Origin: Nemertoderma westbladi
Taxonomy: Eukaryota; Animalia; Xenacoelomorpha
Length of the DNA stretch: 49,943 bases
Reading direction: 5' to 3'
Assembly: GCA_032718475.1 (NCBI GenBank)
Contig: JAUCBJ010006734.1
Coordinates: forward strand, 1-49,943
The position numbers and the translations under genes are program-made. Below the pieces are notes generated by a model. The model did no database searches. It saw nothing but the letters and a program-made list of their open reading frames with translations, and was not told the origin of the DNA. How positions within the stretch are numbered: position 1 is the first letter of the stretch; each line of letters opens with the position of its first letter. Below, piece after piece: positions 10,520 to 43,713 of the stretch.

Positions 10520-11089
10520 TGTTAGCGTATTCAATTCCACTAACCACCCCACAAAGTTGGCTTTAAGCAATATTGGGAGTACAAGGTTGATTACCAATCA
10601 ACCTTGTATCACCCCAATAAGCGGGGCGACAAACCCCAAAGGGACACACACAGCGCACAGCGGGGGTCAGAGGTTACACCTCCGGGAGGGAGAGAGTGAT
10701 AGCAGCAGGGGGAAACACTCCCAGAGAGATGGGAGGGTGAGAAATGAGTTATTAGCCAATGGGGGAAGGCATCCACTGAGTAACGTAATACGGCCAACCA
10801 GTGCAATATATATTACCATTTTATTGTATCATTCGTTCACTTTAGTAAGTCAGCTAGTTAGGGCAGTACGGTAACTCTTAGCACCGTCCACTGCCACCAT
10901 CATTCACTTTACTTTATATGCTATACCATCTGACTGTGCTTGTACTTTATCCATCTTACCATTTATATTATATACCTATCGGACGATTAACAACATCAGA
11001 ACTCTTAAACAATCCTTTCACATATACACGGCGGGGACGCGTAGCTAAGACAACCGGATAAACCAGGATCCTCGGTGGATCCCGTCACA
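10520..11089 (+). repeat. 5' LTR of outer Pao element
   Basis: About 6 substitutions and 2 indels versus 40416-40979 by eye; TATA-like ATATATATT near 10806. Confidence 0.96.
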
Positions 11090-11098
11090 GTGCTAAGA
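11090..11098 (+). other. Non-tRNA primer-binding position of outer element, complementary to LTR 10876-10884
   Basis: GTGCTAAGA is the reverse complement of TCTTAGCAC; no TGG. Confidence 0.65.
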
Positions 11099-11748
11099 AC
11101 CAGTCAGCTGCCCGATACCGAGTGATAAGATTCCAAGCTACCTCAAACTGTAACTGCCAGCCACCGACAAAGAAGATGAGTCGAGAAGGAGAAATGACAC
11201 CGCCGCGACGCGACGGCACCGACCCACGACGGCGGAGCCGTCGACCAGGGACGACCCGTTTGCGGATGTAGCAAGCTATTTTTCTCCGCAATATACCGAG
11301 TAGGTATTTTAGCGGACATAACAAGCGATTTTGCCCGCTATGTCTGCATGTGTGCTTTAGCGGACATAAAAAGCCATTTTTCTCCGCAATAAGCTCAAAT
11401 ACTCTAAACATCGGAACTCAGATGACGACATCTATCAGCTGTGTCCACGTGTAACTTTTTCTTTGTTCTTTGTTCGTTCTTTGTTCGGTCGACCAATCAG
11501 AGCGGTTTTCACTCTGTGTTGGACATTATATACAGAAACTCACGCAATTCAGTCAGTATGTATTTTCCCTAAGCCTAGAACACCGGCTGTGGAATTATTC
11601 TGTGTTTTAGACTTTAGCCAAACATTAGTAGGCTTTGATCATAGAAATGTATAACTGTTATCAAACCAAACTGGCATACAGCCCATATCATACCATACAT
11701 ACCTTTCACCGCATTATTTTACTGCTATTTACTGTCGGTTACTAATTA

Positions 11749-13934
11749 CAGTCCCAATCCCAATAAACATTAACTTGGTCGTTTTGGCGGCCAAAATGAC
11801 CAAAATCACCAAAAAAAATGTAGTGTATTCCTATGGGCTACTTGGTCGTTTTGGCGAAGCGATTTAACTCGAATCAGCTCAATCCAGACAGTCTGTCTCC
11901 TTGGCCATCCATTTGGTGGATCTGACTAAATGTCGGCTCGCTTTCATTTTTATTATTGACAGATTGTTAACTTACCCGGCGCTGAGCCTTGCAGTACTGG
12001 AGTCCGCCCACTGAGGCATTAATAGAGTACACAGTCTTATAAAAGGAGTTGAATGGAGTATTAAAGGGGGAGTATGTATAATAATCTGAACGTCCCGAAA
12101 TTAATTTATGGACGTCCCGAAATTAATCTATCAACCAATGAGAATCGTAATGAAATAACTAATTAATGGACGTCCGGGATGGGATGTTAATTTCGGAAAT
12201 TAATTTCAATAATATTTTTTTTTATAATAAAAATTATTTTTAATATTTTTTTACAATGTATAATTCGCGGACACTGCGGGGTGACTACAAAACAAAGACC
12301 CAATTATAAAGACCTGCATAATCTTGTTACATGTATTAATTTTCGTTAATTGTTTTGAATCCCCCGTCACGCCTCTGTAACTTGCTCCTTTACTAACCTG
12401 CTCCTTTAAATAGCAATGGTACATAACGCTCATTGTGACCTGTACAAAACAAAGAGGTAAAGTCGCGTTACGTCCCAAAGAGCGTTAGGTTCCAAAGAGC
12501 TTTATTTCCCATTGCCAGAGAGCGTGAGGTCGCATTGCGGAACAATTGGGGAACCAAAACAATAAACGAAAGTTAACACATGTGTTTTGTATTTGTACAG
12601 GTCTTTATTATTTGGGTCGTTGGTCTTTGTTTTGTAGTCACCCGACACTGTGGTGTTGCGTGGGGGCCACCAATCCACCCACCCGCACTCAACTCCCAAC
12701 TTCCTGGACACTAGGATACTGAGTGAAAGGGTCTGAAACTACTACAGGAACTCCATGACATACTATGGGCTAGCGACTAGGGACTGGCGCCCTTGAACAT
12801 GTAAACTGTAGTACCTACTGTACCACCTACCTTAAAGTGACCTGTGGGACCAGCCCATATTAGTGAGGTCGGCATTTCTCTTTATCCTGCCGCTCTCTTT
12901 GTATTACAATAGCATACAGCTAACCAATGGCAATGGTCTACCCCCAGTGCGGGAAAGACAAGCTGGCTTCCATTGAAATGAATAGGGGAAGGATAATATG
13001 GTGTGTTCGTGTTCCCAACCTAATGTCTGTCGTCTTGGCTCAGCTAAGCTTAAACAGAGCCACAGCCTACAATAGAGCTTTACCTAAATACACTTCCAGT
13101 GAGCCAAGCAGTAGTGGCGGGTTAGCTCCAAAATGCCCATGTAGGATTTCTTCGAAAAAGGACCAATTGGTTGAGTTACGAGTTACAGTGAAAAAGTATT
13201 CATGATTAGATTTTGCTTTGAACAGGAGAAACAGTCAACAAAAATCCAATAAATGCTCCTCTGTTCAGTTCTGTTCTGAGTAACCTTGACACATAATTTT
13301 GTTTGACATAAAAAAAAGTTGCAATATATTTTGAATCGAATGTTGTAACAACTTTTAAAATTACTGAATAAAAACAGGAAATAAAATACTAAAAAAATAA
13401 AAAAGAATACTAATTATTTGTATGCTATATAACTGAAAAAATGGATTTCGACCAAATAGCGCTCGATTCTCTGGTGTTCAGCAGGTTCAAAGTCCCCTGT
13501 TTCTATGGGTATTATTATTATTATTATTATGGGCAGTATTGCAATATATTTTCCCTAGGAAATAATATTTTTATTTTGTTAACTATATATTCGAGTCGGC
13601 GTGAAATACGCCGTGAAATAAAGTAAACTCAATGATGGAATAAGGGGTATTATATAACATGGCATGATTTAAAGTAACAACAGTATACGGAACTGTCCCG
13701 GGGGGGGGGGGGGGGGGGGGGGAGGGTTTGTGAGGGAATGTCCGGAAATCGAAGCCTTTTTCTATCTGCCAACATCCTGGGCTTTACTTACACTCAGCCT
13801 CTATTCACTGGCTGTGATTGACAAGCCAACTTGCCTCAGAAGTTCCTTTCATGAATGCCGCAATTTATATTTGGCCATTTTGGTCGTTTTGGCCGCCAAA
13901 ATGACCAAGTTAATGTTTATTGGGATTGGGACTG
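11749..13934. mobile_element. Non-autonomous Tc1/mariner-pogo-type DNA transposon
   Basis: About 58-bp TIR CAGTCCCAATCCCAATAAACATTAACTTGGTC.../...GACCAAGTTAATGTTTATTGGGATTGGGACTG; TA duplication; empty site ACTAAT-TA-TATCAG near 27935-27948. Confidence 0.92.
12279..12643. mobile_element. MULE/Mutator-like MITE nested in the TA transposon
   Basis: Perfect 22-bp TIR GGGTGACTACAAAACAAAGACC with longer degenerate inverted arms; 9-bp TSD GACACTGCG/GACACTGTG (one CpG transition). Confidence 0.8.
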
Positions 13935-14579
13935 TATATCAGTTGATAGAATATTGTTATATTTGGAGAATATCGATAAATAATCAGAAAACCCCAATCT
14001 TCTTGATATACTGAAGGTTAGAGAGACCGGTTACATATAACAATTGCGACTTACATTAAAGTGGTTTTGGAGTGAATTTAATGCTATTTCATAGGCCCTA
14101 CAGGTGTCAGTTGCTGTTCTCTTTATATGTGACTAAAATTAGTGAAGGTCGGCAGATCGGTGTGCAGTATTGTGCGGTAGTGTGCATGAGTGTGATAGAT
14201 AACAAAGCATCTCCTAAAGAATGCGCTTTATACGTGAATCAATAGCCATCCTGTTGTGCTTAGTGTAAGTCATAACTCTGTTTACATACTTAGAGCGCCA
14301 CGTCCTAAAGGAACTGTTAATATTTTCCGAAAGTGAATAATATTTGTCAGAGATTATATATTAACGATCAATCGAATAATACAGTAGGCCTACACCGCAA
14401 TAAGGTCAGAGCATCCGAATCCAGTCTCCCGGGTATATCCAGCGGGTGAATGGTCGCGCATAGGCTGGCTTCGGCTAATGTAGTGTATCCAATACTCGTC
14501 ATAGGCTAAAGTCGATTTATAACCTAGAAGACACCTAAATTTGGCAGGTTAAACTGCTAAAGGTCTGAAAGCGCGAACA

Positions 14580-14591
14580 ATAACAGTTATA
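14580..14591 (+). other. Non-tRNA primer-binding position of copy A, complementary to LTR 11650-11661
   Basis: ATAACAGTTATA is the reverse complement of TATAACTGTTAT. Confidence 0.7.
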
Positions 14592-14912
14592 ACTTCTGTA
14601 TTGCAACGTAGGCAATAAAGCTGAAGTACCGGTCGACCGGTAACCAGTAGGCCTGACTACCTAACCACCCGGACCGGTACTTACAGCAGTACAGGTACAG
14701 CAGTATTATTCGATTTTGATAATTATATACCGGTAGGTCTTAATATTTAATTGGGGACGCCTGGTTTTTATTGGGGTTTTACTTAGGCTTATTTCTGTCA
14801 GTTTTATTTATTTGTAAGTTGATATTGAGCAGAAGGCGTGTAAGCCTGCTCAGATTGTACAGATAATTTGTAGGCTGGACTGTTGTCTGACTGTTGTTAA
14901 GTCTGAAGGGAT

Positions 14913-16845
14913 CAGCTGCGTAGCCAGGAATTTCCCACGGTAGGGTCCCAGACCCCAAATTGTAAATCATATTTATAGTAGTTGTGGGTGTGGGGGAAGA
15001 GCCCCCCCCCCCCCAGCGTAGTCCAGGTGTGATTGTTTGGAATTTTAACAAAATGCCCGCCACACGTGATGTGTAATGTTTAGTAGGGTACGCAGCAAAC
15101 TTCGCCCGCAGACAATCTTCTCCCGCGAGCAACCATCGCCAACTAAACAATTATTGTTTTGGTTAGAAAAAGCCGTTTCTGTAACCTGCTCCTTACCTTA
15201 AATTGGTAACAACATCGTTTATTGTTTTGGTTAGAAGAAGCCGTCTCTGTAACCAGCTCCTTTCCCTTAATAGGTAACTAAAATGGTTACTAACACAAAT
15301 CTTATTGGGCGAAGGTTGTTCGTGGTGGAAGATTGCCTTGCGGGCGAAGGTTTTCCCCAGGGTGAAGTGTGGACGTGGGCGAATATTGGACGCGGGTGAA
15401 GGTTGTACTCGGGCGAAGGTTGCACCCAACCTGTAGCCTGTAGTACAGTAGTCGGTATACTACTCATTCTGAGTAATGCGCACCAGTACATGTTCATTCC
15501 CCCAGCCAGTAAAGTCACATACAAGTTTACATACGGTCATTTAATTTGGCTTAATTGGAAAGATTAAAAATAATACTTTAATTATAACAGAAAGTTTTTA
15601 TGTTTCAAGAAACTGCTATTCGCGTGTCATTTATCCCCCTGTCATTTAGCTTTAAATCATTAACATAATAATAGTTATACGGCATAGCAACTGGTCTGGT
15701 CGTCATGCTGTCATGGCTTTTCAGTAAATTTAATAATATTTCTATTAAGAACAGTTAACAGAGAACAGAACATTCTTAAAAACTAGTACTATAGGCCCTA
15801 CTACATGTATAAAAACATGTATTGATAACATAAAAGTATTGCAAAATGACAGTAGGCAAATTTCAATTCATGTCATTTAAATTAAGGGACGTAAAATTTA
15901 AATGTGCTTCCGTTTTTTAAATACCTTATTTACAAATCGGCAATTTCCATTTAGTTAAATGTCGCTTCGTGAAACAATCCCCCACCCCACACCATGGTAT
16001 ATTATTTTATAAACTGCCACATTTTGAAATTGAACTAATTATGGTACCGGTCAGCCGGTACATTATTAAATACACTTTTTTGATTTATTGAAAGTAAAAA
16101 AAAAAACGTTTTTTTGTTAAAAAAAATTAATGTTCTAATTAATTACATTTCAAAGTAATTTTCATGATATTAATAATATTATTGAATTAAAATAGCCACC
16201 CACCGACCCACCCCACAGGTTATTTAGTTGTGACTCGGCAAGACAAGCTACGCAATATCCAATCACATTGGTCAGTGTACCCAGAAAAAATTACATAATT
16301 AATTATATTACATCAGAGTCAGAGTGCCTATCTTATTTATGCTATCTTTCATTGGTATATGGGCGCCCCCCTGCAGTGGTCAATTGGGCTCTATTTCATT
16401 GCTTTACATTACAGACTATTAAACTGGTTGAGAGATTATATGATATATAGGCCTAAGTAATAAGCTGGGTTTCTAAGAACAGTGTATGATATTATGATGC
16501 CTTATCATGGGGGGGGGGGGGGGGGGGGCTGAGGGAATTATTGGCAGTATGGCTGGAGGCCTGGCTCCAACACTTTGATGGGATATATGGTCTCCTTTCT
16601 ACTACTTATTTTCTTTGGCAACCTGCCTGGGATATTGTGGATTGTATCTGGTCTGGGGTCGGGCTCCTTTCCAAAGCAACTTCAACTTCGAATATTTTCT
16701 AATATTCGGTTTATTGCACTTGTCATTATAATTTTTTTAATTTAATGGAACTTGACGATGTCAAAATGCTCTCAGAGTTAGTGTAAGTTGGAATCTCCAT
16801 GGTAGGGTCCCGGGACCCTGGGACCCTACCCTCGCTATGCTAGTG
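14913..16845. mobile_element. Non-autonomous hAT-like DNA transposon in the leader of copy A
   Basis: Perfect 8-bp TSD GAAGGGAT (14905-14912, 16846-16853); imperfect TIR CAGCTGCGTAGC/GCTATGCTAGTG; subterminal GGTAGGGTCCC at both ends; absent from the homologous site in copy B (near 44066). Confidence 0.88.
15087..15431. mobile_element. Degenerate MITE-like insert with GGGCGAAG subrepeats
   Basis: Left arm has CTTCGCCC-type units, right arm has GGGCGAAGG units about every 16 bp; GGT...ACC ends; TSD unclear. Confidence 0.5.
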
Positions 16846-16853
16846 GAAGGGAT

Positions 16854-17390
16854 TGCAGTGTGTGTAGAGTGTATGTCCGATAAAGTACTAGTTAGGAAAG
16901 TGGGTGGCATCCAGTGCTGTAAGGTAAATCCCCCTGAAAGAATAAGTCGTACTACTCGGTTAGAACGCATACTAACTAACCATTTCGGAGTCTGCATATA
17001 CTGTGGTTTATTTAGGCTTGATAGTAGTCTGCCAGCGTTTAGTCTGTATTTTTGTTTGTGTAGTCTGTACGGGTACCGTAATATTTGTTATTCAGATAAT
17101 TTGTAGGCTGGATTTTTGTCTGGCTGTTGTTGGGTCTGAAGAGATTGTGGTGTGTGTAGAGTGTATGTCCGATAAAGTACTAGTTAGGAAAGTGGGTGGC
17201 ATCCAGTGCTGTAAGGTAAATCCCCCTGAAAGAATACGTCGTACTACTCGGTTAGAACGCATACTAACTAACCATTTCGGAGTCTGCATATACTGTAATT
17301 TGTTTAGGCTTGATAGTAGTCTGCCAGCATTTGGTTTGTATTTTGTTTGTGTAGTCTGTGCGGGTAGCGTAATATTTATTATTCAGAGTT
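16854..17390 (+). repeat. About 292-bp tandem duplication in the element leader (also in copy B, about 44025-44600)
   Basis: GTGTGTGTAGAGTGTATGTCCGATAAAG...CATTTCGGAGTCTGCATATAC occurs twice. Confidence 0.85.
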
Positions 17391-18332
17391 TATGCGATTA
17401 TTCGCAACATTCATACCCCCAAGTTTATTCCTACAGTAATTGTGCTTGTTATACATACCGTTATAGTTAAATTAACCCCGGTACTACATCAGGGCTGTTT
17501 GGCGTAGGTAAAGACTGGAGATTTTATGCTTTGGTCACTCTGGCAGATACCGTGGTTCTTTTAGCTGTACAAGTATTTTTAACTGCTGATTATTTATTGT
17601 ATAAGTACTTGTACCTAATTTAGGGTTTAGTGTACAGTGCTTTCCGAAGGTAATTAGTGTGTAGGCAGTATATTTGTGTTGTAAAGTGGTTAATAGGCAC
17701 GTTGGCTCTGGTAGGCCGCGGTAATTAACTTCTAGGTAGGAACACTCCGTGATACATAACGTAGTACTTATAGCGATACGGCTATAAGTCGTCAGACGGT
17801 GGTATTTTTCCTATCTGGACAACGTAGTATATTTACTACTGCTTTGTTATTTTCAAATACCGTAGTATCCTGTCTGTTTGTAATAACCAGATATTCTAAC
17901 CCTTTGTTAGGCTGGTTTGTAGACTTCTTGTAAAATTACCCTAAAAATTCGTACGTGTAATTTTTGTGTTTATTTAGAGATTGTAATCTCACCCCGAATT
18001 GTACGTAATTTGTAGTATTAAGTAACTTAGGCAAATTAGAATTATTTGTTTTAGTGTCCAACAAGTAGCACTTCACTGAGAGCGTACAGCTTCTGTGCAG
18101 TGACTCTTTCCCAGAAATAATAACATTTATTTCAAATATTGACAAAAACCCATTAAACGGGTATATATATTATAAATCAACTCAAACCGATTTATAAAAT
18201 AGTAGGCCTGTCACACAACAATTAGGTCTTAATATCAGTTGGACTACTGCTTAAATAACGGTAATAAGGTAAAGTAAAGTAACCAAGTAACCCCTAAAAT
18301 TCAGAAATTCAATTATTCTAAAATAATTGACA

Positions 18333-18830: not shown

Positions 18831-18957
18831 TTGTATATATATCACATTACATAAAGTAACGATATCGGTAATTAATTACTAGGCTAACAGTGATACTGAA
18901 TTACTAGACTAGCTTTAACTGTAATATAGCAGTAGGCATTCAACTGTACAAACAAAC

Positions 18958-21900
18958 ATGTCTGACACAAAGCAAAACCTGTCGGACAGTCTCCTAGATA
19001 CAACCATCTGTGACCCAGGTAGGAGTGTGGAACGTGTGAGACCGAAGTTCAACTCACCTCCTACTGTAAGAAAGATCATCCCTCCAGTAGTAGTATCAGA
19101 CCCTAGGCTAGTCCAACACCGTAGGTCTATCATAGGCACTCGAGCTCAAGTCAAGCGAGACCAAGAAGCAGCTGTTGAACAGCAGCAACACTCGAGCCGA
19201 GAACTTATTTCTCAGCAGCCCGACAGCTCCAGTAGTGCGGATACTGTAGAGCTGACACCCGAGCGCGGAGCTAAGATGGCAAATGCGGTTTATTCAGATC
19301 CCCTTCTCATCCTTCCTGCAGCCGTACTCACTAGGGTATTGATTGCGGTGGAGGAACACCAAATTGATTGGGCGAGAAGTAAGCGATCGACCAAGGATAG
19401 TTATGCGGGATACACAAGGGAGGAACTGAAGTCTATTGTCGAGTCGCAATGGAACTTCCCCGGACCCGGACTCCCGTTTGACTTATCGGAAGCTGCCTGG
19501 GAAGACATACACAGGATGGGAGTGACAAAAGACACCAGTGATCCAGCTGTATGGAAGAGGTCGGCAGCAGGATACGTACAGGGATTCTTCAGCTCTTTGG
19601 AGCGATTAGAGGAACAACTGTTTCGACAACCCCAAGGACCTCAAGAGTAGGGAGAGCTGCTTTATCAAGTTTGAGAAAGAATTCTAAGAATCAGACTAAT
19701 CCTATCGGCCTTTGAGGAAGCTTCGAAAAGAAGACAAGACACGTCGTTGCAAGTTGCTGTAAAGACTTGGTTCCAGCTGGTGAGTCTCCAGGTTCAAGGA
19801 ACGGCCCAGTGGAAATCTCGGCTGGCTGAGCGCTCGACCCATGGAGAATCAACAGATGCTACCTTTTCCCAAGTGGAAAGTGAAGCGACAGCAGAGAAAC
19901 CGCATGAGAGGGACGCTATTGACATCTATCTGTCAGACTATCAACGATTTCTAGGTGATGAAGAGTTGAGGAGACGGCTGGCTGGACTTCGCCCCAATAG
20001 TGAAGGAGCCAAGTTTGTGCTGGACGCAATAGATGCGGAAATGTTAGCTGCGAACCAAGCTAAATTTGATGAAAGCATCCGCATCGCTAAGGTTCAAGAA
20101 GAACAAGTAAAGAAAAAACGTTAGAAGACAGAAAGACAGCAGCAGCGGCAGCGGCAGAGGCAGAAGCGGAAAGAAAGGCAGCAGAAGTGGAAAAGAAAGC
20201 GGCAATGGCAGCGGCAGAAGCGGAAAGAAAGGCGGTAGAAGAGGAAAGAAAAGTGGCAGCGGCAGAGGCAGAAGCGGAAAGAAAAGCGGCCGAAGTGGAA
20301 AGAAAAGCGGCAGTGGCAGCGGCAGAAGTGGAAAGAAAAGCGGCAGAAGCAGAAAGAAAAGCGCCAGTGGCAGAAGCAGAACGGAGGGCATCTGAAGAGA
20401 CAACCCAACTAGAGTTGGAAAATCTTCAAGAGAGGCAAGACAACTTCAATAAACAGATAACAGCCAGTCGGATGCAGCTGATAAGTCGATCCACCCCCAA
20501 GCGACAGGGCTTTACATCATCGGATGAAGGCGATACAACAGATCCAGAAGGCGGAGGAAATAGATCTCGTCTCAGCAGGCGTAGAAGAATGCCCCACCGT
20601 CAGAAATTGCCTGATTTGCCCCCAGCTGTTAGAAGGCAACTAGCTAGCACAGACTTAGGTAGTACAGAACCCACAGACCAAATTATTCAAATAGAAAGAC
20701 TCCCTACTATAGTAGATGAGCCTGAAATAATTAGGCCTGTTCTCGAAGCCACCCCTTCGGTGATAGAGACACCTGTACTCCCAGAACCTACCTCTAAATT
20801 CCCTTTGCACAGTACTAAACTACCTGTGCCCAGTAGGACTGTTCCCGAGTCCGAACCCGTCCTGGACGCCGAGCGAGATATCAAGAACTTATCGCCCGTC
20901 GTCTCTCGCTCGCCTGCTACTACGTTGGCGACTCCCGCTTCGGCGGTCGAGTGGGTAGCTGAGGGACGACGGGAGATGGGTCTCCTGCTCAGGCAGTTGA
21001 GGGAACACCGTAAGTGCTCCTCTCAGCAGGTCCGGGAGATGGAAGGAACTGTTCAGCAGTTCAAGGGCACAGTAAGGGAAAGTAGGTTAGAGTTGCAAGA
21101 AGTGCAGCAGAGTATCGCGTTAGAACGCGATAAATTAGTAAATACCCAAAGGGGTATACCACCACCCCCGGTAACAATGTGTCAACCTGTTAGGTCTGAA
21201 GTATTTCATGCGCAAGGTGTGGAGCCTACATGCATCTATACTGCTACTGAAGTGGAAACTCCTATAGTAAACCCTATTAAGGGTAATTATAAACCTGTTG
21301 ACAATGATATTCCATATAGACTTGATAATAATCCGAGAAATTTATATACCGATAACTCGATATTAAATAATACGATGGCCCAAGAAAGTTTTACGCGTCA
21401 AATGGCTAGAACCGAAGCCCGTCAAGCGGTAAAGGTGGGAGAGATCGTCAAGTTCAATGGAGATGAGATGAAATGGTTACCTTTTAATGAATATTACAAA
21501 GATAACATACAGAACTCTGTGCTATCTAACGGAGAGAAACTTAGATTCCTCATCGAGTGCTTGGAAGGATCTCCCAAGTTAATGGCGTTAAAGTTTATTG
21601 GACATCCAGATGGATTAAGACAAGTTTGGGATACCCTAAACATCAGGTATGGTAATAGGAATAACATAGCTAGGTATTTGTATGCAAAATTGGTAGCGCC
21701 CCGAAAGTTCATTAGCAGCGGGATTATAGAGTTTTCCGATGAGATTCAGGAGATCTGTAGACAATTAGATTGGCTAGGTAAGTCTCATGAATATCAGAGT
21801 TCTATGGTTATTGGAGCCGTGGCCTCTACTTTACCAAAGGGTGGAGTAGGTACACGCTGGGATAAGAAAGTGTTATATATGATGGAACAACAACGACGAG

Positions 21901-24023
21901 ACCCTACCATGGCTGATCTCATGTCATTCTTAGATGGAGAAGTAAAATTACAGCTCCTAAAGCAGTCCAGAGAGAAGACACCGGAAAACAAGGTAAGTGA
22001 GAAACCCGTTTCTAGGAGAAAGGTAACACCAGTGTGTTATACCGACGACGGCGAAAGCCAGGCTTCTCAAGAAGAGGACAGCGGGAAAGACACTGAAAGA
22101 TCTTATTATGTCAACAAAACGCCTAAAGACGTAAGTAAATTCAAGTCTCGAACCAATGACAGGAGAGAACAGGTAAGAAAAACTCCTCCTACGTCTCCTA
22201 AGAGAATTCATGTAAGAAAGCCCGAAGAAAGAACGAGTGTGCACAACGTTACTCAAAATAAGGTAAGTAACATCAAACCGAAATGTGCGCTGTGTGACGG
22301 GCCCCACCGTTTGAATGTGTGTGATGAATTCCTAAAGAAATCATTAAAGGATAGACGGGAAGTCATGTGGGATAAGCGGTTGTGTTATAATTGCCTCAGA
22401 CAAGGACACCAACGGCGAACCTGTTACTCCGACGCAAGGTGTGCAAAGTGCGGCGCAAAACATCATATCTTGTTGCACACTGAATTCGAACGAAACAGCC
22501 CGAGTCAGGTAAGTGAGTCCGAACTACATGTCCAATTCAGTGATGTGAACGACACTGACCAAAGTTCTGAGATGGAAGGATTCTATACGGACGAATTCTC
22601 CGACGAAAACGAATCCTGTTACCTGATAAATACCGCAGTGTATCGAGCACTTACGTATGAAAAGGACACCGACAGCGAGCTCCCCCTAACTACTTCTGAC
22701 CGACAACCATCTTGGAAAGCACCAACTTCCAATGTAGGAATCCGAGAATTTCCCGTAGTGCAGTTGAGGGTCCACGGACCTGAAAGGAGTTATATAGTGA
22801 ACGCCCTCCTTGACTCCGGTAGCACAGGAACATTCATCGACAAAGAACTAGCCGAAGACATCTTTGCTGGACAACCCAAGTTCCGAACTAAGTTAAACAT
22901 GTCAGGAATTATGCAGGTTTGGAAATCTACAGTAATAGCAGATTATTATGTAGGTGCGTTGTCCACCCCCCAGGATGAACTAGGAGAACACAGTATAAGG
23001 TCAGTAAAAATGGTGGCGATAAAGAACTTCGCTACCAGCCAAGTAGAACCTTATAACTGGGATGAGGACGATTTCACCCAGCAGCTTAAGATACCTAGAT
23101 TCAACACAGACTACCCTGGAGTGCAAATACTCATCGGCCAAAATGCGCATGAGGCGCTTGAGACATTGGAGAAACGGCCTGCTCAACCGCAACCACTACA
23201 AGCCTATGCGGGAAGAACTAGAGTAGGTTGGTACTTTACTGGCCCTTCCCGTAGAACTCTCATGGAAAGGTTACCCAAAGAACGGGTATACCAAGTAAGT
23301 GAATGGGAAGCGGAGAGCAGTGAGGTGGACGACCCAACTGAGGGAACACCATACTCCTCAGATAATGACGATATTAACTCCAATGTAGATCAATGGAGAC
23401 ATTGCCCCGAGACGATTAATCTAGCCGACATCGCTTCCAGAGGAGCAACTCCTCAAGAACTGACAGATACTCCAGACTGGTTAGGTGGACCCGACTTCCT
23501 AAGTAAAGAAGATGAATGGCCTCCCCATCTTACCACGGCTGAGATTAGACAAGCCAAGGGAGCGGAGAAAGTCAAACCTAAAACCCGGACGAGTAAATCA
23601 AGGTTATTTAAACCCGTGATAGATCTGTCTGTACTACACATTGCCAGGGACGACGCTGTGGATCTAAACTCCCCCACCGCGAACCGATCTGTTGTGGAGA
23701 TCAGAGAGAGAGACTGGAGATCTGGAACACCAGACGTCTCGCCGGGACTCTCACCTCTCCTGCCGGGAGCGATGGACCACTATAGATCCTGGAATCGGCT
23801 TTGTAAGGCCGTCGTGTATTTGAAGCGATGTTTCTATCGTCACTATTCCAGGACGAAGAGGAAACCTGGAATTGTATTCGAAACACAACAACTCAATCGC
23901 CCAGTTGGTCGTTTATGTTTACTGGAAAGAGACCGAGAACTGTCCGGAAACTATGGAAGGCAAGATACTCTTCCCACGACCACCTCCCTAATCCAACAAA
24001 CATCTAGGGACTCCCCAACGTAA
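18958..24023 (+). pseudogene. Pao-type Gag-protease polyprotein of copy A (about 1690 aa reconstructed), lacking RT, RNase H core and integrase
   Basis: KFNGDEMKWLPF...EKLRFLIECLEG (Pao Gag core); triple Cys/His cluster CALCDGPH/CYNCLRQGH/CAKCGAKHHILLH; protease ALLDSGS; TAG at 19648 (CAG in copy B) and 1-nt deletion near 20121 relative to B. Confidence 0.9.
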
Positions 24024-27018: not shown

Positions 27019-27096
27019 CTGTTTAGAGTATTTTTATATTTTAGAAACTGTGATTTTTTATATTTTATAGAATTAAATCCCATTTTCTGGGAGCGG

Positions 27097-28585
27097 TGTA
27101 AAAGCTTTTGCGGATGTAACAAGCTATTTTTCTCCGCAATATACCGAGTAGGTATTTTAGCGGACATAACAAGCGATTTTGCCCGCTATGTCTGCATGTG
27201 TGCTTTAGCGGACATAAAAAGCCATTTTTCTCCGCAATAAGCTCAAATACTCTAAACATCGGAACTCAGATGACGACATCTATCAGCTATGTCCACGTAT
27301 AACTTTTTCTTTGTTCTTTGTTCGTTCTTTGTTCGGTCGACCAATCAGAGCGGTTTTCACTCTGTGTTGGACATTGTATACAGAAACTCACGTAATTCAG
27401 TCAGTGTGTATTTTCCCTAAGCCTAGAACACCGGCTGTGGAATATTCTGTGTTTTAGACTTTAGCCAAACATTAGTAGGCTTTGATCATAGAAATGTATA
27501 ACTGTTATCAAACCAAACTGGCATACAGCCCATATCATACCATACATACCTTTCACCGCATTATTTTACTGCTATTTACTGTCGGTTACTAATTACAGTC
27601 CCAATCCCAATAAACATTAACTTGGTCGTTTTGGCGGCCAAAATGACCAAAATCACCAAAAAAAATGTAGTGTATTCCTATGGGCTACTTGGTCGTTTTG
27701 GCGAAGCGATTTAACTCGAATCAGCTCAATCCAGACAGTCTGTCTCCTTGGCCATCCATTTGGTGGATCTGACTAAATGTCGGCTCGCTTTCATTTTTAT
27801 TATTGACAGATTGTTAACTTACCCGGCGCTGAGCCTTGCAGTACTGGAGTCATACCATACATACCATACCATACATGGATATCATACCATACATACCTTT
27901 CACCGCATTATTTTACTGCTATTTACTGTCAGTTACTAATTATATCAGTTGATAGAATATTGTTATATTTGGAGAATATCGATAAATAATCAGAAAACCC
28001 CAATCTTCTTGATATACTGAAGGTTAGAGAGACCGGTTACATATAACAATTGCGACTTACATTAAAGTGGTTTTGGAGTGAATTTAATGCTATTTCATAG
28101 GCCCTACAGGTGTCAGTTGCTGTTCTCTTTATATGTGACTAAAATTAGTGAAGGTCGGCAGATCGGTGTGCAGTATTGTGCGGTAGTGTGCATGAGTGTG
28201 ATAGATAACAAAGCATCTCCTAAAGAATGCGCTTTATACGTGAATCAATAGCCATCCTGTTGTGCTTAGTGTAAGTCATAACTCTGTTTACATACTTAGA
28301 GCGCCACGTCCTAAAGGAACTGTTAATATTTCCCGAAAGTGAATAATATTTGTCAGAGATTATATATTAACGATCAATCGAATAATACAGTAGGCCTATA
28401 CCGCAATAAGGTCAGAGCATCCAAATCCAGTCTCCCGGGTATATCCAGCGGGTGAATGGTCGCGCATAGGCTGGCTTCGGCTAATGTAGTGTATCCAATA
28501 CTCGTCATAGGCTAAAGTCGATTTATAACCTAGAAGACACCTAAATTTGGCAGGTTAAACTGCTAAAGGTCTGAAAGCGCGAACA
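27097..28585 (+). repeat. 3' LTR of copy A, with a patch carrying the left 256 bp of the TA transposon (27596-27851)
   Basis: TGTAAAAGC...GCGCGAACA after GGGAGCGG; 27596-27851 appears identical to 11749-12004. Confidence 0.92.
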
Positions 28586-28590
28586 ACCTG

Positions 28591-33739: not shown

Positions 33740-36700
33740 GAAGACCAGAATCGAGTTACCACCTGTAGAACCATTTGAATTCGATGGAAGTAGGCCGGAA
33801 GAATACCTGCAATTTCAGTGCATGTACAGCAATGAGATATTGACTAAGTCCTGACGCCGGCGGAGTGCCTAAAATATCTACATGTGTATACAGGAGGCCC
33901 AGCGTAAGACATCATGAGGCAGTATCAGGGCATCGAGGGTGGCTTCATGACAGCATGGCGGGCACTAGACAGGGAATACGGGCACCCGGCCAAGATCATC
34001 CGGCAGACCCTGAGGGGTATAACATCGGGTGGCCTACAGGATAACCCCGTTAGCATAAAGACGTTTGCGAACAAAGTCGAGAAGGCACTAATCGTGTTGA
34101 AGACGCTAGACGCGCCATACGAACTCAATGCATCTAATAACATCACCACGATAGCGCAGGCACTGCCGATCTGGCTGCGCAATAAGTGGAGAAAAATCGC
34201 TTTCTCCACCCAGGAGAAGAAGGGTGCGGAACCGGGCCTAGAGGAAATGTCGAACTTCCTCAACTACGAAGCAGAGTTAATCACAGACCCAGTCTATAGC
34301 GAGGATAGTCTGGGGAAGGGGCCAAAGACCGAATATAACAGGCCGAAACCAGAACACAACACGGCAAACGCATTGCCAAAGCTCAGACAGTCGCTGCCGT
34401 ACGCAGCAACGCAGGGGACTGCTAGTCCACAAGTAGCCGGGGGTAAGACCACATCATGGAGCGGACAGAGGAAAAATAACAACACAAATAAACACAACCC
34501 TAACACGCCCAGTAGGCCGAACCCAACTAATAAGAACAGTAGGGACTTAGGTACGAATGCAAGTGCGATATGCAGCGCACTGTATAAGGATGGCTATAAC
34601 CCAAAGAACAAATGCCAATTACATACAAATGCACTTCATCAGACCATGAACTGCAGGTATTGGCAAGCACTACCCAGGGAAGATCAGGTAGAATACGCGA
34701 GGAGATATGAAGTTTGTTCTCGATGTGTGATGGGTGGACACAGAGCCGACCAATGCGAAGAAACACCAATTAAGTTCGGTCAGGGCAAAGGGCAGACGAT
34801 GGCAACGAGCACCGTAGGGGCAAAGAAAAGAGGAACGGTACTACTCGGGGTAGTACCAGTGCGAATGATTGAGGAAGGCAATCGATCAGTGACCACACTG
34901 ATGCTGGTCGACAGTGGAGCAGCCTTCACCTTAGTTGAGAATTGGGTGGCCGAAGAGATAGGAGTGAGAATGAGGCCAAGTAGAATGGCGGTAACAACCA
35001 TCTCCAGCAAAGACGAAATCCTGGAGATGAGGACCATGCGGGATAGCAGCGATAGCACCGGGATGCGACTATGGGGCGACCATCGACCCCATCCAGGTGA
35101 TAGAGTCGATAAATATCAACGCCAGGCGGCCAACCAACATCGAGGTCGAACAATATAAATTCCTGGACAGTATTGATTTCTCAATCCCAGAGGTGGACGT
35201 TAGGAAGGTATCCATCATAGTAGGAATGGACTGCCCGACAGCCGAGAATGCGAACGGTCTTTGGCGAAGACAGGCAGTGTGACCTGGTGGCGATTTTAAC
35301 ACCATTCGGGTGGACGTTGAGCAGCCCAATTAAGAGCAAGATACCATTTAGGATGTCAGAGACATCAGGGTGCATGTTCGCGGGAACTATGCGAGAGATG
35401 GGAGATGAGAGAGCGGAGGAGCAGCTCAGGAGACTGCTGAAGCAGGATTTTGAGGGATTAAAAGAGACCGGGGTCGGAACCTCGGTAGAAGATAAACAGG
35501 CTCTACAGTGCGTAAAGGAGTCGATAAGATGCGATGAGGGGCGGTATACCATAGGGATGGTATTGAAGCTACCGAAGCTACCGCTACCCGACAATAGAGG
35601 AATGGTACTCACGAGGCTTCGTAAGTTGAAGCAGACCCTAAAACAGAGCCCCGAAAAGAATGAGTACATTCATAAAACGATCAGGAAGTATGTCGAGAAA
35701 GGATGGGCCGTGGAGTTACCAGTCGACGAACCAAACACGGACAGGACCTATTACCTATTACCTGCCACTCCACGTGGCTCTAGACCCGAAGAAAGGTAAA
35801 CTGCAGATTGTAGTTGACGCATCGGCTAAAACCAACGGCAAATGCCTAAACGATTATCTGCTGGAGGGTCCCAATATCTACAGCTCAGGGATCGAGGTCC
35901 TACTCAGATTCAGGAATGGGAAACACGCCTTCACCTGCGACATCGAAGGCATGTTCAACCAAGTCCGTGTAAGGGAAGAGGATAGCGACAGCCAACGCTT
36001 CTTATGGTACAACGGCGACGAGGAACCGTCGACAATACCGATGTACAAGATGGTAGTACAGAATATGGGAGCCAAGTCATCTTCGTTTATGACGACTGTG
36101 GCCGTAAGAGACACAGTAGAGGGAAAGGAGAATAAATATAGCGCCAAAGCCGTCGATATGATTCGACGCGGCTTCTATGTAGACGACGGAATGGAGTCTG
36201 GCAACACGGTTAAGGAACTACTGGATACAGGGCGCGAGGTTCGCGACATCCTTAAAGGATCCGGCTTTAACCTAACCAAGTTCCAATCCAGTTTGGAAGA
36301 ATTTATTAAAGCCATAGAGGATAGGAGGCCAGAATCGACCATGGATAACCCCACGACAGCCAAGGGGCAGGACATGGCAAACAAAAGGGTGGAGTCCCAA
36401 CAGAAGGCATTAGGGATCGTGTGGAACCGAGAGACAGATGAACTGAAGTACCAGTTGAGCCAGGAGGGCGCAGACATCCACACAAAGAGGGGCTATGTGT
36501 CGTACATAGCAAGGATATACGATCCCCTAGGCCTAGCATCCCCATTACTAGTCACGGGGAAACAGATACTCAAGAAAGTATACAAACTCAAGGAGGATTG
36601 GGACACAGAGGTCCCGGAAGAGATCAGCAAGCCATGGAGTAAGTGGACAGAGAGTTTAGAGCAGATGGGAACATACAGTATGCCATGCGTATATTTCCCG

Positions 36701-38820
36701 GATGGAGACATGACGAATCTGGATCTGCACATGTTCTCCGATGCGTCATTAGAGGCATACGGAGCGGCACTCTAGTTAGTACAACGAGAGGGGGCTCACA
36801 AGCCCAGACTCACGTTCAGCAAGGCGAAGTCGACGCCACCAGATTCAGCATCGGTTCCGAAACTCGAGTTAACAGCTGTGAGGTTAGGAGTTAGGGCCAC
36901 AGCCTACTTAATGGACGCCATTCCCAACATAGTGGAGACACACTACTGGATGGATTCCATGGTAGTGCTTGGTTGGCTACATAACAAAAGGACAAGATAC
37001 CCTATATTCATCGCAAATAGGGTAAACGAAATAAGGGCAACTACAGAATTTGAAAGGTGGCACTACTGCCCAACGGACGAGAACCCAGCGGACTTGTTAT
37101 CGAGGGGCGTGGCACGCCACACTTTCTTGAAGAAGGAAGTATTGTGGCAGCATGGGCCGCAATTTCTGAACGATAAGACAGCCTGGCCGCCGATGAGAAA
37201 GGTGGACCCGGGCTCAGGAGAAGTAACATTAGAGGAAGAGGAAGGAGATTCAGAGGGTGAAGAGATATACAGCCAGATGGTGAGGGAGATAAGGGACGTG
37301 CAACAAAAACCGGAAGAACAGTGCGATAACCCAACGGACAAACTCCTTAGCTACAGCTCTAGTTGGTACAAGACCAAGAAGTTAGTGGCGTACTGGAGAG
37401 CCTTCGGGAATTTCCTCAAGGGAGTCGGAAAAGACATAAAAATTAGAACAACCAACGATCTGGAGGGAGCGGCCAAGGCAGTCATCCGCTACCAACAGAG
37501 GAAGAACTACGGCGACGAGGTGGAATGCGTCGGTAAACAATAGCATCTCTGACGGGACAGTGAGCTGATCGCGCTGTCACCACAACTCAATGATGACAGG
37601 ATCCTAGTAATGAACTCTAGGGTATTGAACAACAACAGTATTGTCATCCCACCAAAGCCCATCATCATCCCTAATGGATCGCCGATAGTCCACCAGATTA
37701 TCTGGGACTCCCATAAGTCGATATTGCACGGGGGCACCAACCGGACCCTCACGGAGATACGAAGGAACTTTTGGGTCAAACAGTTGAGAAAGAAGGTAAA
37801 GGCGGTAGTGGGGCAGTGCCAGACCTGCCGACGAGCTAAGAAGGAGCGAGCTATACAGGAGATGGCGCCACTACCGGCCAGTAGGGTGAGACAACACGAC
37901 CCGCCATTTACGCATTGCGGTGTGGATATGTTCGGGCCGATAAAGATTAAGGTGATGCGACACACGGAGAAACGCTACGGTATTATCTTCGTGTGCAACA
38001 ACACGCGGGCGGTAGGGATAGAACTCGCCCAAGATGCAACCGCATCAGCATTCATTAATGCTCTAGAAAGGTTCAGAGACCGCAAAGGTGGGACGATCGC
38101 AGTAATATATTCTGACAACGGAACCAACTTTGTGGGGGCGGAGAACGAGATGGCAGAGGCCTTGGATATCCTGGAAGGGGAGGAAGTCAGGGCAGCCATG
38201 AGAAGACGACAGGTGAAGTGTGAGAGGAGGACGCCGTATGCTCCGCATACTCTAGGATGCGTCGAGAGACTCGTGGGTAGTTCAAAGCATCTGATGACAA
38301 AGTTGATGAACACCCACATGGTTACAGAGGACGTACTAAGAATGGTATTAGCAAAGTGTGAGGGTATCATTAATAGCAGACCGCTATATCCAGAAAATGA
38401 TGACCCTGAGTCATTAGATGTGCTGACGCCCAGTCATTTTCTAATGGAAAGGCCAGCGACCATCGACATGCGGGGTGTAGACCCAGACGACATACACTCC
38501 CGCCAGAGTTGGAAAGTCGCTAAGGCGATAAGCGCAGAGTATTGGAGGAGGTGGGTCGAGGAATATCTACCCACGCTTCATAGGAGGAGCAAATGGAGAA
38601 ATACAAACAGAGAGTTAAAGGAGGGTGATCTGGTGATCGTCACGGACGATACCATCATCAACAACCAGTGTGGTTGGCGAGGGTTGTGGGCACTCACTCC
38701 GATGAGGACGGAAGAGTCCGATCGGTAGAAGTGCGGATAGGTGGCAAGATAGGAGCGAAAGATAGGAAGACCTACAGGAGGGCTGTAGGGAAGTGCTGCC
38801 TGTTAGAGGGAGCACCTTAG
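33740..38820 (+). pseudogene. BEL/Pao Gag core-protease-RT-RNase H-integrase, with multiple frameshifts and stops
   Basis: EPFEFDG; AWRALDREYG; CSRCVMGGH; MLVDSGA; VVDASAK...CLNDYLLEGP, DIEGMFNQV, FYVDD; YDPLG; LHMFSDAS; WMDSMVVLGW; WHYCPTDENPADLLSRG; LHGG...CQTC, GVDMFGP, SDNGTNF, ERLV; LTPSHFL, WRRWVEEYL; stop at 38820. Confidence 0.96.
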
Positions 38821-38954
38821 TTGAGTAGAGTTTAGTCGTCCAAGTATTGGAGTGAGGGGGGTGGGATCGAGGGCGAGACGCCCTTCCCACACACAAAAAT
38901 TAAAATAAAAAAAAAAGAATAGTACATAATAGGCACGCAGTAAGTAGGCAGATA

Positions 38955-39460: not shown

Positions 39461-40415
39461 GCAAGAATTAGTGGTAGGAGGATATATATGTATAAGATAT
39501 AGTATATAGTAAGAGACTAGAGAGCACAATATACCATAGAAGTAGTAGCCAGAAAGATAGATAGGGCAATAGCACAAAACAAAATAAAAATCAAGAATAT
39601 TAGGATCACCTCCGAACTACAGAAAAGCCTTCAAGATGGTAGACCACCTGGGGCTGAAGGGCGAGTTGGTGTAATACAACAGCCGGCATCTAGTAGACAG
39701 GGAGGTGGATACACATATCACGTGGGAGAAGTTGGAAGCGGATAGATTTGGGGAGAAGCGTCTGGAAGAAGTCGCCAGGGGAGAAAGGCCGAGAGAGAAT
39801 GAGGCGCATTATGTAGACGAACATATAATATAATATATGATAATAGCCTTATAATAATTATATAAGTAACTCGCATATATATATTATAAAGTACGTACCG
39901 TAGTCAAGCACAACCTTTTCCAATTAGCTACTGGGACTGGGGATTAATTGACTAGGGCGACAGGACGGGACTTGGACGGCTCCCACCAACATGAGCGCTC
40001 ATGTGTGGGGCACGATGAGTGTGTGAGGGACGAAAGCGAGAATGGGAATCGGGGGGAGAATGGAGAGGAGATTTTTTGACAGGATGAGGGACAGTGAGAG
40101 GAGTGCAGTTTGAGTGTGGGGGGGGGGAGGAGTAAGAGTTGGAGCGGTTGAGAAGTTGGAGTAAGGGATAGAGCGGAGTTAGAGTGGCGAGAGTGTTGGG
40201 GAAACAAAAATCGTGTGGGAGAAAGTCACGATCGGCCCGACACGGGACGCCAGGAAAACGGGGTAGCGATATCATACCCATAGGGAGCGGCCTGGAAAGC
40301 CAGCTCCGGAAAAAATAATTCCACCCCACACCCGATGGTAGATCGGGATCCAGCGGAATTGTAGCGCACTATAGGTGGATGCTATCTTCTCACCGGGAAG
40401 ATAGCATGGGGGGAG

Positions 40416-40979
40416 TGTTAGCGTATTCAATTCCACTAACCACCCCACAAAGTTGGCTTTAAGCAATATTGGGAGTACAAAGTTGATTACCAATCAACCT
40501 TGTATCACCCCAATAAGCGGGGCGACAAACCCCAAAGGGACACACACAGCGGGGGTCAGAGGTTACACCTCCGGGAGGGAGAGAGTGATAGCAGCAGGGG
40601 GAAACACTCCCAGAGAGATGGGAGGGTGAGAAATGAGTTATTAGCCAATGGGGGGAAGGCATCCACTGAGTAACGTAATACGGCCAACCAGTGCAATATA
40701 TATTACCATTTTATTGTATCATTCATTCACTTTAGTAAGTCAGCTAGTGAGGGCAGTACGGTAACTCTTAGCACCGTCCACTACCACCATCATTCACTTT
40801 ACTTTATATGCTATACCATCTGACTGTGCTTGTACTTTATCCATCTTACCATTTATATTATATACCTATCGGACGATTAACAACATTAGAACTCTTAAAC
40901 AATCCTTTCACATATACACGGCGGGGACGCGTAGCTAAGACAACCGGATAAACCGGGATCCTCGGTGGATCCCGTCACA
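40416..40979 (+). repeat. 3' LTR of outer Pao element
   Basis: Matches 10520-11089; preceded by PPT, followed by TSD GTTGT. Confidence 0.96.
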
Positions 40980-42455
40980 GTTGTTCTTCGATGACCCTAG
41001 GGGTCGAGAAGTATATTTTGGGCTAAATGTCCTGATTCTATATTTTTTATTGGGGGTGTAAGACTCCTGTTCTTCCTTTAATTTAATTTATATATACATA
41101 CCAACCCCCTGTCAGTCAGTATGTCGTTAACATCAATTATCATCTTATGTCAATAAGCCTTTATGTTATATCCATTAATTGAACTTTATTTACATGTATT
41201 ATTATTGATATTCTGTCGTTAAACTCAATTTGTTGTCTTCTTTGCTTAATATATCGCCGATATTACGGAATCAAGAAAGTTTTACACGCAGCACAACAGG
41301 CGGGTTACTATAATTAAGTATCAGTGATAATCTGGACAATTGTATCAGATTTGTGTGTTGTCATACCTCTGACTTTTACTAAATAATAAATATATGGCGA
41401 TATTTCAGACCATTATTATAAGCAAAGCTCTTATTATTAGTTACATCACGATTGAGAGTTGTCACAAATTGAGTACTGTAGTGATATCAATATAATTAGA
41501 CCAAAGACTTGTCACAATACGTTTCCTCTAAAGGAAAACACAATCACCAGACTTGAGTTCTTACAGAATTAATTAGTCAGTCATTTGCTTGTTATACTGT
41601 GTTGCCACACCCTCCAGGTATAGTATCTCAGTCAAATACAATAGATAATCAAATACCGTATCGAACTAAATAAATCATAGAGAAAATCAATACATGAGAA
41701 GGAAAAGGGTAACTTAAATCGATCCAGTGTGCGGATCTTCGTTGAAGGTATACTAGCGCCATTCCACCCATTGAATCAGACCAGCAATATAAAGCCTATC
41801 TGCATGTGATTTCGGTACAGCCGGTAAAGAGTCAAAATATACGAAATTGAGATTGAAGGAACATATTTTTATAAAATGCGCTAACATTCATAGTATAGAA
41901 CTTAAATTCACGTTCTGAGTGAAATTCAATAATCTTCGCATTATCCAAGTCCTATTTGTCGGTAGTTCTAATTAAACAATGTGGCGCATTTTGTTCTAGA
42001 ACAATTATTATTTGTTCTAGAACAAACAAACAAAAAAACTAGCTAATTTGTTAGCTAATTCTAATTTTTTATTCTATGTTATCTTTGTATCACATATTTA
42101 ATAAAAATCACTAGCTACAATGAAAATTAGTAGTTGTTAGTACTGTAATTGTTTTTAACACATACTAATCAAATAAACACCACAAAATAACATTTTTTTA
42201 ATGTTCTAGAACAAAAAACATTTGTTCAAGAACAAAATTAATAAAAAAAATGAATAGACAATATGTTCTAAAACATTTAAAAAAAGTAACAAAAACTAGC
42301 TAGTATAAAAAATGATGAGGGTGATGGTTGTGCACAAAACACACTACTACAACTGTAAGACCTGTTCAATCACAATTAAAACAGTTCAACTTAGTTTTCC
42401 GTCATCAGTTAGACCCTTTCAGCAATCTTCGAGTCGTTGGTCATTGATAGAGTGG

Positions 42456-43702
42456 TGTAAAAGCCTTTGCTGAATTGCCCCGTTATTTTTATTATCTTTT
42501 ACATTAAAATACTCTGTAGTTGATTTAATAAGTGTAAGAGACCGTATTATTGCTGTATCGGTGTTTTTAGAGGATCTAAGACCTATTTCCTCCGTATGTG
42601 TACTGTGAAAGGCATATTTTATGATTCTATGGCAATTCGTGACGCAAAGGGGTGATAGCTACTCTTGAACAGTAGTTACTATGACTACGGTTAACAGCTG
42701 ACATTCATACGTGTTGATTTCCTTTGTTCTACGGCGTCTCTCAGTTCAGTCAGCCAATTAGAGCGTTTTTGTGGCTCCTTGTACAGAAAATTTCCGAGAA
42801 ATGACGCAATGCCTATGTGCAGTGTTTACATTCAGTCCTGAGCCAAAGAAAGAACGGCTTGGAAGTATTTTGTGCTTTACTGTTTTTTAGTCTTACACTA
42901 GTAGGTTTAATTATAAAGGGCATATATCCTTTAACTAACGACTACCTGACTCATGGAATCACCTGCTGACTGATCATACATACTGACTGCTGAAACATTG
43001 CAAACTCGTAACAATCAGTGTTCAGTTGTTGTTTTATACTGCTATTTACTGTCAGTTCTTCATAATATGGTTGATGAATTATTATATTTGGAATAACGAT
43101 AAATAACCCCGCAACCCAATATTCTTGATATACCGAAGGTAAGAGAGAAAGGTTACCAATAACGATTGTGACTTATGTTAAAGTGGTTTGAAGTGAATCT
43201 AATGTTATTTGATAGACCCTACATGAGTCAGCCTGTGTTCCTTTTATATGTGACTAAAATCAGTGAAGATTGGCAGATTAGTGTGCAGTATTGTGCAGCA
43301 TTGTGTATGAGCGAGTCTGTTAAAGAAGCAATTCCTAAAGAATGCGCCATATATGTGAATTATAATTAAGCCATATTGTTGTGAGTAGTTTAAGTCATAA
43401 CTCTGTTTATATAGATAAAGCGCCACGTCCTAAAGGAACTGTTAATATTACCGAAGGTGAATAATATTGTCAGAGATTATATAATACTGTCAGTCGAATA
43501 ATACATTAGGCTTACATAGCAATAAAAATTAAACCGTCGAACCCAATCTCCCGGGAATATCCAGCGGGTGAATGGTCGCGCACGGATTGGTTTCGACTAG
43601 TGTAGTGAATCAAATACTTATCATAGACTAAAAACAGATTTAATATCTAGAAGACATCTTAATTTGGTGGGTTAAACTGCCAAAGGTCTGAAAGCGCGAA
43701 CA
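42456..43702 (+). repeat. 5' LTR of copy B
   Basis: TGTAAAAGCC...GCGCGAACA; 3' half clearly homologous to LTRs of copies 0 and A, 5' part strongly diverged. Confidence 0.85.
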
Positions 43703-43713
43703 TTAAAGGATAT
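43703..43713 (+). other. Non-tRNA primer-binding position of copy B, complementary to LTR 42924-42934
   Basis: TTAAAGGATAT is the reverse complement of ATATCCTTTAA. Confidence 0.7.

Follow-up and report, generated by a model that had tools for sequence, protein, structure and literature searches.

The primer binding site (PBS) position of three BEL/Pao retrotransposons from Nemertoderma westbladi is complementary to a segment of each element's own long terminal repeat (LTR), and this complementarity at the LTR end is a real and statistically strong feature. The elements lie on contig JAUCBJ010006734.1, of which a stretch of 49,943 nucleotides (nt) was analysed (hereafter, the window). Four BEL/Pao pieces are present in the window: an outer element (10520-40979), copy A (11259-28585), which is nested in the leader of the outer element, copy B and copy 0 (Table 1). 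We favour, with some reserve, self-priming of reverse transcription in cis, independent of transfer RNA (tRNA), as the explanation of this pairing; that the primer is LTR-encoded in one form or another appears quite probable.

Pairing of the PBS position with the LTR

A preliminary description of this DNA had proposed that the nucleotides following each 5' LTR complement the LTR itself. Indeed, all three pairings are exact reverse complements, each starting directly after the terminal CA. The LTR ends are fixed, since the 5' and 3' LTRs match and target duplications are present. When offsets from -6 to +40 relative to the LTR end were compared, the longest perfect LTR complement fell at offset 0 in copy A (12 nt) and the outer element (9 nt), and in copy B the 11-nt match at offset 0 tied with an 11-nt match at offset +9. 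Complements as long or longer occurred at 8 (copy A, 12 nt), 12 (copy B, 11 nt) and 85 (outer element, 9 nt) of 30,000 internal start points, and 0, 6 and 13 of 5,000 Markov LTRs, respectively, reached these lengths. The next pair on the LTR side of the duplex is a C-A mismatch in copies A and B and, as read from the sequence, likewise in the outer element. The outer site is present in both LTRs, recurring in the 3' LTR at 40766. Of the additional pairs proposed beyond the cores, the extension in the outer element stands above chance (as good in 1 of 1,000 internal 20-mers and 20 of 1,000 shuffles), and the approximately 10 pairs after a bulge in copy B do not.

The absence of TGG after the 5' LTRs, also noted previously, is borne out for the first 40 nt after all three of them, and every metazoan tRNA 3' 12-mer among those listed ends in CCA. 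On the same grounds, none of the three 5' LTRs is followed by the 18-nt PBS, matching the 3' end of tRNA-Arg or tRNA-Gly, that the International Committee on Taxonomy of Viruses (ICTV) describes. The window contains no tRNA genes and no Rfam matches.

The sites of copies A and B align without gaps and differ at four of 11 positions, each matched by a difference at the corresponding PBS position. All four differences, which had been suggested to be compensated, are restored as Watson-Crick pairs at the aligned sites, so that each copy has 11 of 11 Watson-Crick pairs (a probability of ~3.7e-5 if the changes were independent). Cross pairs between the copies fail, at -0.5 and +0.6 kcal/mol versus -11.4 and -10.8 kcal/mol for their own pairs. 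The two copies are identical at 37 of the last 40 nt of the LTR and at 34 of 43 nt of the following leader, and at only seven of 11 PBS positions, so that the PBS tracks the distant LTR site. The same layout is found in the outer LTR, which has no BLAST similarity to the LTRs of copy A, copy B or copy 0, and its occurrence in an unrelated LTR counts in favour of self-priming.

A long-range helix and the transcript start

In a second helix, H2, approximately 25 nt just 5' of the site pair with a segment far downstream in the LTR (U5). H2 was first found in copy B, by folding and a duplex scan, and was then tested at the aligned columns of copy A and copy 0. It reaches -15.8 kcal/mol in copy 0, with none of 592 other windows as good, and in the 3' LTR of copy A 4 of 569 windows are as good. 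In all three copies the best partner of each H2 5' strand is its own 3' strand, and H2 covaries across copies A, B and 0. H2 shares 4-5 nt with the far end of the core; without this overlap it still forms (-12.2, -16.5 and -9.6 kcal/mol in the three copies), and H2 and the core together would constitute a pseudoknot. If H2 acts in the RNA, the transcript must reach at least 20 nt above the site, and a primer consisting of its first 11 nt would be ruled out. This arrangement suggests that the A/B RNA extends upstream of the site and that the primer is internal, and the significant extension in the outer element points likewise to an internal site.

The LTR end itself has a best LTR partner of -12.1 kcal/mol in all four LTRs tested (copies A, B and 0 and the outer element). 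Its partner in copies A, B and 0, termed H4, shows no covariation because the paired letters are invariant among them. A leader:U5 helix, H3, was rejected as a conserved feature, being the top window in copy B and not at the aligned place in copy A (-3.2 kcal/mol).

Primer lengths had been estimated from TATA and initiator (Inr) motifs. In a motif scan, the putative outer promoter is better formed than the A/B candidate, where the TATA guess is weak: the TATATA of copy A (11527) is altered by a G at 11528 in the element's own 3' LTR and in most of the contig depth of runs X1-X3, not X4, and no TATA motif occurs at the aligned place in copies B and 0. The estimate of 105-110 nt for the A/B primer is soft because of this disruption. 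A TATAAA in copy B (42912) was considered as a family TATA box and rejected, as it is absent from copies A and 0 at the aligned columns.

Splice-donor-like motifs lie a few nt past the guessed initiators in the outer element (GTAAG, 10845) and copy A (GTATG, 11556), and are absent there in copies B and 0. A primer created by splicing, in which the PBS complement would arise on removal of an LTR intron, was rejected: the best GT-AG junctions gave 7, 7 and 8 nt, versus 9, 12 and 11 nt unspliced (outer element, A and B), the search in copy A covering the LTR part 5' of its insertion. GATAAA is present in all four LTRs (11057, 13975, 43098 and 2799), at aligned columns in copies A, B and 0, and is a possible poly(A) signal, with AATAAA at 43521 as a possible alternative in copy B.

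Priming models and known systems

Four observations can be joined in one model: the complementarity, its start directly at the LTR end, the compensatory changes and H2. The RNA would fold so that the LTR site pairs with the PBS position directly after the 5' LTR, cleavage would follow directly 3' of the site, and the released 5' piece would serve as primer for minus-strand DNA, beginning at the first U5 base. Judging from the promoter motifs and H2, the site would lie inside R, downstream of the transcript start by ~46 nt in the outer element and ~100 nt in copies A and B. By analogy with Tf1, the cutter would be the RNase H of the reverse transcriptase (RT), and plus-strand synthesis would copy the primer into a new PBS; such rewriting of the PBS from the primer would be the reason why site and PBS change jointly and without wobble pairs. 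Across the long U5, H2 and the LTR-end stem would keep this fold together or gate it, and the RT for copy A, which lacks its own, would presumably be supplied in trans. Put together, an independently evolved, tRNA-free mode of BEL/Pao priming is a possibility that we advance only tentatively, in which a capped 5' fragment of ~45-110 nt is cut in R, an R:U5 helix sets or gates the primer, the PBS is rewritten in each cycle, RT-less families are supported in trans, and the architecture is unlike that of Tf1.

Self-priming without tRNA is described for Tf1, Tf2, Tj1, Tosmo and the Tf1/sushi group of Ty3/gypsy elements, among others in passages of PMC4600332, which also cites a title that names a role of the Tf1 RNase H in cutting the self-primer. 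In a Tf2 model, the RT cleaves the self-primer (PMC5341516). The Tf1 primer is given as the very 5' end (first 11 nt) of the RNA, acting in cis, with duplexes flanking the PBS in a 'pretzel' (portions of 10.1101/2022.12.06.519325); about half of Tf1 cDNA keeps the copied PBS, and Tf1 inserts at PBS-like sites without integrase (PMC11042837). The elements of the window share with Tf1 a PBS directly after the LTR CA, complementary over ~11 nt to their own predicted R, the lack of a tRNA-type site, and a flanking duplex at the LTR end, whose best partner (-12.1 kcal/mol) resembles one of the pretzel duplexes. They differ in belonging to BEL/Pao rather than Ty3/gypsy, in a site that apparently lies inside R with paired sequence upstream (H2 and the outer extension) instead of at the RNA 5' end, and in the pretzel, whose three duplexes do not all recur in both copy A and copy B. 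As far as can be read from the DNA, they appear to work like Tf1 without membership of the Tf1/sushi group. The PBS of Tf1 and that of copy A both begin with ATAAC, a likeness that is probably due to chance because the PBS of copy B and that of the outer element differ.

The preliminary description had named Tf1 as the established case and the Tf1/sushi group as a proposed one, and knew of no description for BEL/Pao. In the literature searched, which left Repbase Reports and most subscription journals outside and was judged by titles and the opening of abstracts apart from the papers named here, no report for BEL/Pao was found; self-priming has also been predicted for Tcn1 (gypsy) and the plant copia elements TAR, Houba and Osr-1, the basis being a complement that is 10 nt or longer and begins 0-5 nt past the LTR (passages of PMC6317226). 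Copies A and B have such a complement, and the outer 9-nt core just misses it. Those elements belong to other superfamilies and to plants, and the passages concerned give neither a position in R nor a second helix. Because of these earlier predictions, the novelty lies in the occurrence in BEL/Pao and in the probably internal primer. A survey of BEL/Pao (PMC3118150) contains no whole-word match for primer, PBS or tRNA, and passages of PMC3601003, PMC13524379, PMC8220671, PMC5443660 and PMC5445492 make no mention of BEL self-priming. The window elements agree with the ICTV description of Belpaoviridae in domain content and order, LTRs, polypurine tract and 5-bp target duplication, and differ from it in having no PBS for tRNA-Arg or tRNA-Gly. 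As to tRNA-like primers, the BEL-like Cer7 of C. elegans reportedly has a proposed self-encoded one, which the literature search did not retrieve; this is reported to be a tRNA-like RNA encoded elsewhere in the element, whereas the segment considered here is in the R region.

Of the self-priming proposal as first put forward, three points are upheld, namely that the elements are BEL/Pao, that a tRNA-type PBS is lacking and that PBS and LTR covary; the A/B promoter is weak, and the extra pairs of copy B do not exceed chance. Several observations weigh against it. The core covariation rests on one pair of copies (A and B), and pairing past the core does not exceed chance in copy B (89 of 1,000 internal 20-mers and 130 of 1,000 shuffles as good) or copy A (394 and 435). 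In folds of the contiguous leader, which covered the outer element and copy B and left out copy A owing to its insertion, the probability of the core pairs was 0.00-0.01 and 0.00-0.12, respectively (three starts each). Forcing the core costs only 0.5-3 kcal/mol, so that a fold with the core comes close to the predicted minimum without itself being that minimum. The outer LTR-internal helix (-37.8 kcal/mol; none of 1,160 internal 45-mers as good, the best at -35.4) is stronger than the site:PBS pairing (-30.4 kcal/mol), part of its downstream strand stacking beside the forced core and part competing with it. Furthermore, a second pretzel-type duplex (leader:U5) is present in copy B and missing at the aligned place in copy A, the A/B TATA motif is weak, some contigs carry a different LTR end followed by the start of an A-type PBS, and the ICTV describes belpaovirids as primed by host tRNA through an 18-nt PBS for tRNA-Arg or tRNA-Gly (PMC8742986).

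A different LTR end joined to an A-type PBS is expected both from shared ancestry and from a shared outside primer. The pairing might be structural, as an RNA switch in packaging, dimerisation or PBS masking, with a host RNA such as a tRNA half acting as primer. In keeping with this, the A-type PBS occurs after a different LTR end in the contigs just mentioned, in each of the two families other parts of the LTR compete for the site, global folds do not favour the core, one unclassified tRNA end among those listed shares 8 nt with the outer site, and half-tRNA priming exists in copia lineages. We nevertheless consider it unlikely, as it would require a primer switch between copies A and B that the LTR site followed at four of four positions with Watson-Crick pairs only, two LTRs that are unrelated to each other both have the duplex beginning right at their boundary, and there is no TGG. 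An LTR-encoded primer could also be delivered by another molecule or by the 3' copy of R (promoter-proximal transcripts, solo-LTR RNAs or a cut genome 3' end). Register and covariation would be explained equally well, both LTRs carry the site, and the cis fold does not dominate thermodynamically. Against this reading, which we regard as quite improbable, stand the organised cis structure near the PBS that is suggested by H2 and the LTR-end stem, and the precedent of Tf1, which is in cis. The remaining explanation denies the match any role in RNA and puts it down to chance or to an accident at the DNA level, for instance a small inverted duplication; it could appeal to matches of only 9-12 nt and to the nearly palindromic core of copy A. 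Against the null rates of 8, 12 and 85 per 30,000, the compensation at four of four positions and the same layout in an unrelated LTR, it is hardly credible and already largely refuted. Self-priming in cis stays our preferred account.

If it is correct, self-priming would reach a third LTR superfamily, contrary to the tRNA-primed ICTV description of belpaovirids, and would bear on whether hairpin or self-priming preceded tRNA priming, a question raised in passages of PMC3601003. An internal primer would show that the cut in an RNA duplex need not act at the capped end, and PBS-based annotation would miss such elements. tRNA fragments act against tRNA-primed elements via the tRNA-type PBS, and elements of this kind would be without that target. 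The predicted cut positions, 10884, 11661 and 42934, are open to direct mapping of RNA ends.

Further copies were sought in contigs. Those crossing the LTR end (14562-14632) into the A-type PBS numbered 80, 113 and 178 in three runs and 0 in X4, single contigs carrying 2-8 letter differences, and some loose contig ends have an A-type core followed by a B-like leader. Contig depth over the copy A U5 is thousands-fold that over 13226-13539 (runs X1-X3), which is not a copy number and fits a large family. A depth step at 14591/14592, which was set aside, probably reflects a minimum-length effect. In a metagenome scan, 10 loci carried an 18-nt LTR-end pattern; BLAST against the window gave only short matches around the pattern for six of them and none for the other four, and all were treated as chance. 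In the scans of viral contigs, none of the candidates, numbering 2 and 34, was confirmed, and a scan of genome contigs returned one BEL locus, without an LTR pair. This locus (L011, 2966-8794) is a long-frame BEL polyprotein in a contig of a marine Planctomycetia metagenome-assembled genome, and is probably eukaryotic contamination.

The elements and other features of the window

The outer element, copy A and copy B are BEL/Pao by protein content. The outer element has gag, protease, RT, RNase H and integrase in this order between two LTRs; it also has a polypurine tract, and its target sequence GTTGT is duplicated on either side (10515-10519 and 40980-40984). Pfam recognises DUF1759, an Asp protease, RVT_1 (below the cut-off), Peptidase_A17, Integrase_H2C2 and DUF5641 in its frames (PF05380, 2e-26; PF18701, 1e-13; PF03564, weak at 0.004); PF03564 scores about 1e-11 in copies A and B. 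No chromodomain was found by Pfam in the frames scanned and the domains are of Pao type, so that the element is not a Tf1/sushi chromovirus. Among the 150 best listed representatives, none exceeds 42% identity to the outer RT piece. In a quick tree of 107 rows, built without a non-BEL outgroup, this piece falls among the BEL RTs on a long branch, and no subclade was assigned.

Table 1. Positions of the elements, pairing sites and related features in the window
Feature	Positions	Strand	Evidence or remark
Copy A PBS position (ATAACAGTTATA)	14580..14591	+	12 nt
Copy A candidate primer 3' end (TATAACTGTTAT)	11650..11661	+	
Copy B PBS position (TTAAAGGATAT)	43703..43713	+	11 nt
Copy B candidate primer 3' end (ATATCCTTTAA)	42924..42934	+	
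Outer PBS position	11090..11113	+	9-nt core 11090-11098, extension to 11113
Outer candidate primer 3' end (TCTTAGCAC)	10876..10884	+	extension partners 10861-10872
Copy A H2 5' strand	11629..11655	+	pairs with 14226-14249; -14.0 kcal/mol, equalled by 1 of 568 other U5 windows
Copy A H2 3' strand, downstream LTR	14226..14249	+	
Copy B H2 5' strand	42902..42928	+	pairs with 43347-43374; -21.7 kcal/mol; 0 of 557 other windows as good
Copy B H2 3' strand	43347..43374	+	
H4, partner of last 10 nt of LTR	14450..14460	+	near-identical in copies A, B and 0; best-scoring window of all three, -12.1 kcal/mol
Outer LTR-internal competing partner of site region	11030..11057	+	-37.8 kcal/mol; 11030-11036 also pairs with LTR end
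Outer putative core promoter	10756..10845	+	motif scan, predicted; CCAAT 10756, TATATA 10807, Inr-like 10839
Outer 5' LTR (TG...CA)	10520..11089	+	557 of 563 aligned nt identical to 3' LTR
Outer gag end, protease, RT, RNase H, integrase	33908..38728	+	several reading-frame pieces; Pfam, tblastn
Outer polypurine tract and 3' LTR	40408..40979	+	G-rich tract 40408-40415; LTR 40416-40979
Copy A 5' LTR	11259..14579	+	without first 10 nt present in other LTRs; carries 2.2-kb insertion
Insertion in copy A 5' LTR	11749..13935	not assigned	67-bp terminal inverted repeats, flanking TA
Copy A gag-protease reading frames	18925..24023	+	two pieces; DUF1759; tblastn
Copy A polypurine tract and 3' LTR	27089..28585	+	tract 27089-27096; LTR 27097-28585
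Copy B 5' LTR	42456..43702	+	alignment
Copy B gag frame	45881..49942	+	window ends inside gag
Copy 0 3' LTR	2169..3410	+	preceded by element's 3' end only; site 2660-2672; H2 2640-2666 with 3028-3051

Copy A is flanked by the target duplication ACCCG/ACCTG. RT and integrase were not found in it by tblastn with four BEL polyproteins and the outer frames, its pol being reduced to a short remnant of the RNase H region. The insertion in its 5' LTR is presumably Tc1/mariner-like, and contigs that skip 11747-13937 show that empty-site copies exist. In the 3' LTR of copy A (27851-27942), only the first ~260 nt of the 5'-LTR insertion are present, followed by short slipped repeats and a 64-bp duplication; this has the look of a repair templated by the 5' LTR and broken off early. 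A 3' region with short frames is common to copies A and 0 (24023-27096 and 1-2168; 82% over 1 kb); it is possibly an accessory gene, and its copy 0 frame at 1335-2090 had no Pfam match.

A 29-nt block (14294-14322) is invariant in the U5 of copies A, B and 0, which elsewhere are 70-81% alike. At 3411-3993 there is a tandem second copy of the copy 0 U5, starting where the LTR reads ATAACA (2828). The A-type PBS opens with this hexamer, and one base is absent at the joint; the parallel with Tf1 insertion at PBS-like sites is weak and was noted post hoc. A tandem array with units of roughly 65 bp occupies 4640-7288, and 8063-9904 on the minus strand holds an intron-free, eIF2B-delta-like frame of 613 amino acids, its best match being 48% to a Branchiostoma protein and the top listed matches being animal.

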